In this document: one piece after another, positions 8,037 to 8,885 of the stretch
Layout of the letters: the number at the start of each line of letters is the position of its first letter
How positions within the stretch are numbered: position 1 is the stretch's first letter
Origin: Escherichia coli
GTDB lineage: Bacteria > Pseudomonadota > Gammaproteobacteria > Enterobacterales > Enterobacteriaceae
Reading direction: 5' to 3' (one strand)
NCBI RefSeq assembly: GCF_003334385.1
Contig: NZ_QOWN01000066.1
Length of the DNA stretch: 14,062 nucleotides
Translations under genes and position numbers: made by a program
The notes under the pieces: model-generated
Told to the model about the DNA's origin: nothing
The model's database searches: none
The model's input: the letters and a program-made list of their open reading frames with translations, nothing else

Positions 8037-8885
8037 TCAGACTCGTGGCGGCAATGCACCAGGATAATGACGTGCAATAATATCATTCAGTTTTTCAACA
8101 AGGTCAGGACACTTAAAGACAATATGTACGGTCCCTTTCTGGTAGCCACGCACCGTAAAATATTCCCCTTCAAACAACTCACCGATATTGTCGCCGTTCC
8201 CGAGATATTCACCATACTGCGCCCCGATGCTGTTCCTGAAGTCAGGAACGTTGCGTCCCTCCAGCAGATAAAACGGACGTACCAGGTCATCCAGTGCCTC
8301 CCGTCCGCTGCAGTCCAGCGTCACACGCCCGTTACTCCAGCGGTACAGCAGGTTTTCAATAATGATTTTCTTGCCCAGACGGCAGGGATTATTGGTTCTG
8401 TAATCCCATGACAATTTCCGGTAGACATCAATCAGTCCCTGTTCAAATGTCTGCATCTTGCTGGCATTCAGATGGCGAAAAGTTGCCAGTACATTGTCCA
8501 GGGTGATTTCAGGACAGGTGTCGCTCATCAGCTGGCTGTTCCACTCATCACGCTGGCATGAACTCATGAAGGTGTACATGCCAGTATCCGTCATCAGGCG
8601 ATCCCAGATTTTCCGGTCGGCAAGACGGGTGATATTCCTTTTCGCTTCTTCCGGTTTATCCATGCATCGAACGGAGTCAGTCACACAGTCTTCAAACCCG
8701 TAGAGAAAAATATCACCGGAAGCATCGAGCAGAATCCTGCGCGCTGTCGCCAGGCATTCCATCGCCTGCATGAACAGTGCAATACCTTCGTTACGCTGCG
8801 CGATGATGCGGTCGATAGCCACAGACGGAATAACATCTGTCGTGCCGGCAGTATTCAGGTCAGCAGTGGGTAAAGTCTGATTCAT
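8037..8885 (-). CDS. Hypothetical leading-region protein, 282 aa
   Basis: ATG at 8885..8883 with a GAGGAGA Shine-Dalgarno 7 nt upstream. Lies immediately behind hairpin-repeat copy 1 in the direction of transcription. No motif I can assign. Confidence 0.7.
   Translation of the reverse strand: MNQTLPTADLNTAGTTDVIPSVAIDRIIAQRNEGIALFMQAMECLATARRILLDASGDIFLYGFEDCVTDSVRCMDKPEEAKRNITRLADRKIWDRLMTDTGMYTFMSSCQRDEWNSQLMSDTCPEITLDNVLATFRHLNASKMQTFEQGLIDVYRKLSWDYRTNNPCRLGKKIIIENLLYRWSNGRVTLDCSGREALDDLVRPFYLLEGRNVPDFRNSIGAQYGEYLGNGDNIGELFEGEYFTVRGYQKGTVHIVFKCPDLVEKLNDIIARHYPGALPPRV

Follow-up and report, generated by a model that had tools for sequence, protein, structure and literature searches.

A stand-alone DUF4942 gene behind a single-strand promoter-like hairpin in the leading region of IncI plasmids: a candidate early establishment factor

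A stretch of 14,062 nucleotides from Escherichia coli (assembly GCF_003334385.1, contig NZ_QOWN01000066.1), referred to below as the window, belongs to an IncI-complex conjugative plasmid with the gene order trbC–nikB–nikA–oriT–leading region. Over its whole length the window is most similar to IncI-gamma/K1 and IncI1 plasmids, at about 98% identity. The gene considered here, of the ygfB/ydiA type, encodes a stand-alone protein with a DUF4942 domain. The origin of transfer (oriT) was placed by aligning the window with pESBL-EA11 (hereafter pESBL), a plasmid with a published gene table. Its position fixes the polarity of transfer, and the leading region therefore comprises all higher coordinates. 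By an established rule, conjugative DNA enters the recipient 5′→3′ from oriT, leading region first, and the transferred strand serves as the template for leading genes (PMC7736820). Above position ~7480 the plus strand is the transferred strand (T-strand), so that expression of the minus-strand genes located there need not wait for the complementary strand. The ygfB gene lies on the leading side of oriT with the transferred strand as its template, and nikA and nikB occupy lower coordinates. The minus-strand genes beyond it encode an Rpn-family nuclease, an Hp16-like protein, a DUF1380-like protein and a KlcA-like antirestriction protein.

The open reading frame (ORF) of ygfB runs on the minus strand from the ATG at 8885-8883 to the stop codon at 8039-8037 and encodes 282 amino acids; the program-made ORF list counts 283, starting from a GTG at 8888. 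A first-pass annotation had placed a 282-residue gene with a strong ribosome-binding site behind a repeated hairpin, and the gene, the site and the hairpin are all borne out (Table 1). The protein is identical to pESBL Hp22 (O3K_25947) in 275 of 282 residues (97.5%), and the flanks are collinear with pESBL at 96.5% over 2.5 kb. The IncI variants compared differ by 22–23 synonymous and 7–9 non-synonymous substitutions, corresponding to a ratio of non-synonymous to synonymous rates (dN/dS) of 0.08–0.11. The ORF is a genuine gene under purifying selection and not a chance ORF. A terminator-like stem begins 14 nt past the stop codon and reads A8-GCCCCGG...CCAGGGG-TTTT on the plus strand; this stem-loop (8004-8023) is probably a bidirectional terminator common to ygfB and the convergent yggA. 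With the repeat hairpin directly upstream and a terminator after the stop, ygfB forms a monocistronic unit of hairpin, Shine-Dalgarno sequence, ORF and terminator, and is the sole gene behind that hairpin.

The upstream hairpin (copy 1) recurs at ~11770-12130 (copy 2) in blocks of 76–95% identity. Taken as single-stranded DNA, the plus (transferred) strand of copy 1 forms a long, imperfect hairpin with a folding energy of −107 kcal/mol (z = −8.6 versus shuffled sequences). This large, stable structure stands directly upstream of the gene, is homologous to other ssi copies and is 99% identical to the segments upstream of the orthologous gene in pESBL (Hp22) and pB2C_83. Three hairpin copies are found in IncI plasmids, preceding ygfB, the Hp16-like gene and ssb. 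A study of pESBL describes three ‘class 1’ single-strand promoters resembling ColIb-P9 ssi and F Frpo, as well as six leading-region operons induced up to ~500-fold within 15 min, as recorded by RNA sequencing with starts mapped by rapid amplification of 5′ cDNA ends (PMC12672017). By hairpin homology, ygfB would belong to one of the three class-1 operons, and copy 1 is a putative single-strand promoter that would drive minus-strand transcription, with the promoter function carried over from that study (PMC12672017). A simple promoter scan of the copy 1 hairpin found no promoter, and no −35/−10 hexamers were confidently assigned. The pair TTGTGG/GATAAC, located in the 3′ arm and pairing in the stem, is not claimed as promoter hexamers, the −10 candidate being unconserved in copy 2. 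The gene behind copy 2 (11316-11750, minus strand) encodes a 144-residue protein resembling pESBL Hp16 and assigned to phrog_1987; the listed 341-residue ORF 11316-12341 is an artefact whose upstream part runs through hairpin copy 2.

Table 1. Features of the transfer and leading regions in the window
Feature	Position	Strand	Remarks
trbC	731-3034	+	
nikB relaxase	4328-7039	-	
nikA	7051-7383	-	
oriT region	~7400-7481		aligned to pESBL oriT 70354-70436 (window 7400-9889 versus pESBL 67943-70435)
yggA (pESBL Hp23)	7616-7951	+	small; convergent with ygfB; between oriT and ygfB
Intrinsic-terminator-like stem-loop and T-run	7994..8023	-	stem 8023-8004, 8 pairs, then CTTTTTTTTC
ygfB/ydiA-type gene	8037..8885	-	282-residue stand-alone DUF4942 protein; stop codon included
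Shine-Dalgarno sequence GAGGAG	8894..8899	-	8-nt spacer to ATG; read from sequence
Hairpin copy 1, Frpo/ssi class-1 type element	8900..9261	-	~360 nt; repeats D1, D3, D5, D6 versus 11840-12128

The small gene yggA is the first to enter the recipient and is on the wrong strand for single-strand transcription. The Prokaryotic Genome Annotation Pipeline labels it ‘molybdopterin-guanine dinucleotide biosynthesis protein MobC’, apparently through a clash of names with the mobilisation protein MobC.

The ygfB product matches Pfam DUF4942 (PF13708) with E = 1.1e-49 and 169 bits (residues 90-275, model positions 5-189/190), as do 58 of 58 aligned relatives. At E ≤ 1e-3, 1,967 relatives were found in a 50%-identity representative library. 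The locus itself occurs in 2,071 PLSDB plasmid records, mostly at 95–99% identity, 1,905 of them typed as conjugative; tblastn placed relatives in at least 5,000 plasmids (4,582 conjugative). The IncL/M (pOXA-48-like) plasmids carry a stand-alone DUF4942 gene that is 50% identical. The family had already been catalogued as an uncharacterised leading-region family of rank 24 (Samuel et al., 2024) and is enriched in leading regions (PMC11541004). Judged by these matches, the protein is IncI YgfB/YdiA, a member of a catalogued and highly abundant family and not a novel protein. The remote homology search proposed in the first-pass annotation thus ended in a known family, and the structural comparison gave no solved relative. 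That annotation had called the product a ‘candidate novel anti-defence factor’; its novelty falls away with a catalogued family and near-identical copies on more than 2,000 plasmids, and what stands is a reasonable conjecture of an anti-defence role. Homology to a housekeeping protein, which would have spoken against such a role, was not found, and the gene is an early leading-region gene with a plausible link to restriction and modification. A more distant DUF4942 gene (23% identity) is located in the IncHI2 plasmid NZ_LC542972.1 (locus L066, 6983-9003), where it overlaps the start of a 401-residue coiled-coil-rich ORF. The latter has no methyltransferase motifs, and the arrangement may be another two-gene form of the family.

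The AlphaFold2 model of YgfB (mean predicted local distance difference test score, pLDDT, 89; predicted template modelling score, pTM, 0.78) features a long N-terminal helix, a helical bundle and a C-terminal alpha/beta part. Residues W94, D200, H254 and N267, together with R31, D90, G150 and R203, are conserved in both stand-alone relatives and those fused to a C-terminal extension. Across 181 stand-alone and fused sequences of less than 60% mutual identity, four positions are 100% invariant, three of which are polar. In Pfam, DUF4942 was the sole match to the protein, with no membership of the ArdA, ArdB/KlcA or ArdC families. The isoelectric point (pI) is 5.3 for YgfB, against a family median of 6.95.

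Among the 377 retrieved relatives, 63 consist of an N-terminal DUF4942 domain and a C-terminal extension. Both a motif I-like EPSAGxG and a motif IV [ND]PP[FYW] are present in 60 of these 63, and some extensions match Pfam N6_Mtase or MTS. The family phrog_6263 (‘DNA methyltransferase’, 548 positions) aligns to YgfB with its N-terminal half. Fusions of ~450–580 residues (for example P0196, P0220 and WP_011831692 on Methylibium plasmid RPME01) have the full-length DUF4942 domain in common with YgfB at 30–48% identity, including its invariant W, D, H and N; however, they continue into a C-terminal EPSAGxG...NPPF Rossmann methyltransferase, whereas YgfB stops at the domain boundary (…ALPPRV). The methyltransferase module of the fusions is ~35% identical to YdcA, a 187-residue minimal methyltransferase of IncF leading regions. 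Motif IV was found in none of the 264 stand-alone relatives and is absent from YgfB, and the same applies to motif I. No methyltransferase profile of Pfam or NCBIfam matched YgfB, and its model has no Rossmann-type alternating beta-alpha core. The combination that marks a methyltransferase, namely the S-adenosylmethionine motif I and the catalytic motif IV in a Rossmann domain, is therefore lacking in YgfB.

The two forms also differ within the shared domain. Stand-alone proteins have the signature LSWxY[KR]TNxP (LSWxYKTNxP in YgfB) together with D215 and R217, whereas the main fused clade has LDRRFRSHDG at that place. In a neighbour-joining tree of 181 domains, built without support values from a query-biased sample, the fused forms fall mostly into one clade. 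By motif content and signature, stand-alone and fused DUF4942 proteins are distinct subfamilies, and databases that name the stand-alone protein ‘Methyltransferase’ are in error, the name evidently having been transferred from fused relatives. When a fused protein was modelled, its two domains came out with confidence, with a pLDDT of ~50 in the 20-residue linker and a pTM of 0.60; the low linker score and the drop in pTM weakly suggest a flexible tether rather than an integrated target-recognition domain. New in this work are the fusions, which make up about one in five of the retrieved relatives, the absence of methyltransferase motifs from all 264 stand-alone forms and their conserved signature, the usual lack of a matching methyltransferase nearby and its complete lack in a pOXA-48-like plasmid, the lack of likeness to solved structures and the dN/dS of ~0.1.

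The DUF4942 genes keep recurrent company. Their neighbours include KlcA-type antirestriction genes, RadC/JAB, SSB, DUF1380 and toxin-antitoxin genes. In IncL/M plasmids it is a leading-region gene pointing the same way as klcA and ssb; a KlcA-like gene is also found near DUF4942 in the window and in another conjugative element. CP4-like prophage remnants have RadC and YeeU-like neighbours, and in chromosomal islands, the Shigella SRL island among them, the order is KlcA-RadC-YeeT-YeeU-YeeV-YeeW-DUF957-DUF4942 (PMC6980539). Phage relatives occupy early or replication-recombination modules beside NinB, YqaJ and beta-clamp-like genes, and in one context LPD-type polyvalent-protein domains are encoded nearby.

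The IncL/M gene is located ~6 kb in, behind a conventional repeated promoter/5′-untranslated-region cassette and not an Frpo-like hairpin, so that co-regulation with entry genes is conserved across two control designs. In the pOXA-48-like IncL/M plasmid NZ_CP071266.1 (locus L010, 8640-13230) this cassette is 96 nt long, comprises TTGATT...TATAAT, a conserved GC-rich stem and a Shine-Dalgarno sequence (GGTAGCGCCCCGACTGGCGCAGGAGT) and is present in five copies; its 42-nt 3′ part occurs in eight. The copies precede, among other leading genes, those for DUF4942, KlcA and DUF1380, and suggest a repeated promoter/operator of the regulon type, not single-strand promoters.

Three further known systems offer comparison. 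The single-strand-specific methyltransferase M.EcoGIX (YfbB of R64, YfeA of F) shares with YgfB the plasmids, the leading region, the orientation and the early expression, and protects pESBL from restriction on entry (PMC4288162, PMC7736820). However, it is an unrelated beta-class DPPY enzyme of 227 residues without DUF4942, whereas YgfB has no catalytic motifs. M.EcoGIX was also considered as the DUF4942 fusion partner and rejected, its beta-class DPPY differing from the EPSAGxG...NPPF of the fusions. In the IncF pair YdbA/YdcA, YdcA resembles the fused module and also relies on a separate non-catalytic partner, whose gene lies immediately upstream in the leading region. Nevertheless, this partner, YdbA, is a DUF3560 protein without similarity to DUF4942, and IncI and IncL/M plasmids carry DUF4942 without a YdcA-type enzyme. 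The idea that YdbA is a hidden DUF4942 protein was rejected accordingly, the two being unrelated. In the IncF sequence OZ026768.1 (locus L003, 4515-6486) a 453-residue YdbA precedes the 187-residue NPPF protein YdcA, a second, unrelated partner for the same module. Finally, KlcA/ArdB and ArdA share with YgfB the early leading-region niche, co-regulation and a recurrent adjacency in plasmids, phages and chromosomal islands, but have no sequence or fold similarity to it; the YgfB family is near-neutral, whereas ArdA is an acidic DNA mimic.

Taken together, the data are tentatively best read, at somewhat less than an even chance, as describing an autonomous, non-methylating early establishment factor, most likely acting on the restriction/modification axis. 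The autonomous and non-methylating character is suggested by the stand-alone form, which lacks a methyltransferase and seldom has one of the fused type nearby. In this proposal ygfB would be transcribed from the transferred strand once ~1.8 kb of the plasmid is inside the recipient, and YgfB would use the same conserved site as the fused enzymes to engage either the incoming DNA or a host factor that is itself conserved. We infer from the fusions and the gene neighbourhood that YgfB counters restriction or another defence, and how it may do so; the early induction of ygfB and its dispensability in permissive mating are taken from the published papers and not from the present analysis. A more specific version is doubtful: stand-alone DUF4942 proteins may be a new anti-restriction or anti-defence class that works without methylation and either evolved from the non-catalytic module of a methyltransferase or was lent to it. 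Such a protein could, for example, occupy the entering DNA, or capture a conserved component of host restriction/modification or of the replisome, by means of the W-D-H-N site.

Several observations weigh against a defence-related establishment factor. In the literature searched, no antirestriction assay of YgfB or DUF4942 was found, nor any assay tying the family to defence. In transposon-insertion sequencing of pESBL, Hp22 scored 1.00 as non-essential and 0.00 as required for transfer, and is dispensable for both transfer and maintenance; ArdA, PsiB and M.EcoGIX scored like Hp22 in the same permissive mating. The IncL/M arrangement shows that the oriT-adjacent position is not conserved. As for mechanism, the confident model found no fold match in the PDB, the PADLOC defence models gave 0 families at E ≤ 1, and NCBIfam gave no match, so that the mechanism has to be read from fusion and neighbourhood. 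D200, H254, N267, W94 and R203 resemble an enzyme or ligand site as much as a DNA-binding surface. An ArdA/Ocr-type DNA mimic was rejected on charge, since the family, with a pI of ~7, is not acidic.

An establishment factor unrelated to defence, which would serve complementary-strand synthesis, recircularisation, single-strand protection or host reprogramming, is an unlikely but serious competitor. It fits the position of ygfB behind the first usable single-strand promoter after oriT, the co-regulation with ssb as well as klcA in IncI and IncL/M plasmids, and the NinB, YqaJ and beta-clamp-like neighbours of the phage relatives. A precedent exists in the leading-region protein YfjB, proposed to reprogramme the host in a 2026 preprint (PMC13370423). 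However, the dispensability of Hp22 for transfer and maintenance speaks against it, and both the fusion partner, a DNA-type adenine methyltransferase, and the recurrent neighbour KlcA point to restriction over replication.

YgfB could also be a split methyltransferase subunit that engages DNA or a target in trans for M.EcoGIX or for host Dam or HsdM and so promotes protective methylation, in the way that lambda Ral promotes methylation by EcoKI. Many relatives fuse DUF4942 to a minimal methyltransferase without a target-recognition domain, M.EcoGIX is encoded in the same IncI leading region with early induction reported in papers, and IncF YdcA likewise has a separate upstream partner gene. 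The evidence nevertheless leans against such a subunit, which we regard as quite improbable. M.EcoGIX belongs to a different enzyme class, and artificial constructs expressing it by itself give methylation (PMC7736820). The stand-alone gene is kept in pOXA-48-like plasmids without such an enzyme: a complete plasmid of this type has no methyltransferase of the M.EcoGIX, YdcA or fusion type (tblastn at E ≤ 0.01, and annotation). In 44 of 46 phage or prophage loci that encode a stand-alone protein, no match to the fused methyltransferase module lies within 6 kb, and the weak matches in the other two are not adjacent. Moreover, the conserved motif has diverged between stand-alone and fused forms, and the modelled linker of the fusion is flexible. 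A hidden or split methyltransferase beside stand-alone genes was also sought and rejected: the IncHI2 neighbour is a coiled-coil protein, and none is present in the pOXA-48-like plasmid.

A little further down the scale, and improbable as well, is an enzyme in its own right, that is, a hydrolase, nuclease or nucleotide- or base-modifying protein acting through D200/H254/N267 with W94 and R203, in which case the fusion would join two activities. Polyvalent proteins of phages and conjugative elements combine independent activities in this manner. The four fully invariant positions, the flexible tether of the fused forms and the LPD-type domains encoded nearby in one context are consistent with this. 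That stand-alone YgfB is itself a DNA methyltransferase, as many UniProt names (‘Methyltransferase’, ‘Restriction methylase’), the names in Supplementary Table 1 of PMC11541004 and AFDB descriptions have it, is almost certainly untrue given the missing motifs, profile matches and Rossmann-type core.

Other features of the window concern the rest of the leading region. An AT-rich palindrome, AAAGTGAA-N6-TTCACTTT, is present in two copies at 9356-9464, just upstream of a gene for an 83-residue helix-turn-helix (HTH) protein (9465-9716, plus strand), and looks like a putative operator pair. This gene is oriented against T-strand transcription. The table of Samuel et al. labels an HTH family of similar rank as anti-CRISPR-associated (aca6-like), which is not equated here with the HTH protein of the window. 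A gene for an Rpn-family (RpnA-like) recombination-promoting nuclease occupies 9979-10905 on the minus strand and is followed by an ORF of 69 residues (9747-9956, minus strand) repeating the C-terminal ~70 residues of Rpn. The corresponding direct repeats, 9768-9877 / 9991-10100 and 9885-9917 / 10132-10164, are 75–79% identical.

At the far end of the window lies a KlcA/ArdB-type antirestriction gene (phrog_10132; 13161-13586, minus strand), followed by a DUF1380-like gene at 12692-13114. The hairpin region before klcA (13593-13903) contains the inverted repeat 13622-13653 / 13828-13859 and is 87% identical to that upstream of ardA in pESBL. Since klcA holds the slot of ardA in pESBL and pB2C_83, a cassette exchange at promoter hairpins is suggested.

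The IncI1 and IncL/M (pOXA-48) plasmids rank among the main carriers of extended-spectrum beta-lactamase and carbapenemase genes, and thousands of plasmids possess a gene of the ygfB type, placed in IncI behind a promoter that is probably among the strongest of the entry phase. The DUF4942 family should not carry a methyltransferase annotation, and the short list of invariant residues would help to make the function of YgfB directly testable. Establishing what YgfB does would close one of the widest gaps that remain in the ‘entry programme’ of plasmids and could explain differences in host range or offer a target for blocking establishment. If stand-alone DUF4942 proteins are indeed a new anti-defence class, one fold without a solved relative would protect IncI, IncL/M (pOXA-48) and other plasmids, phages and chromosomal islands alike.
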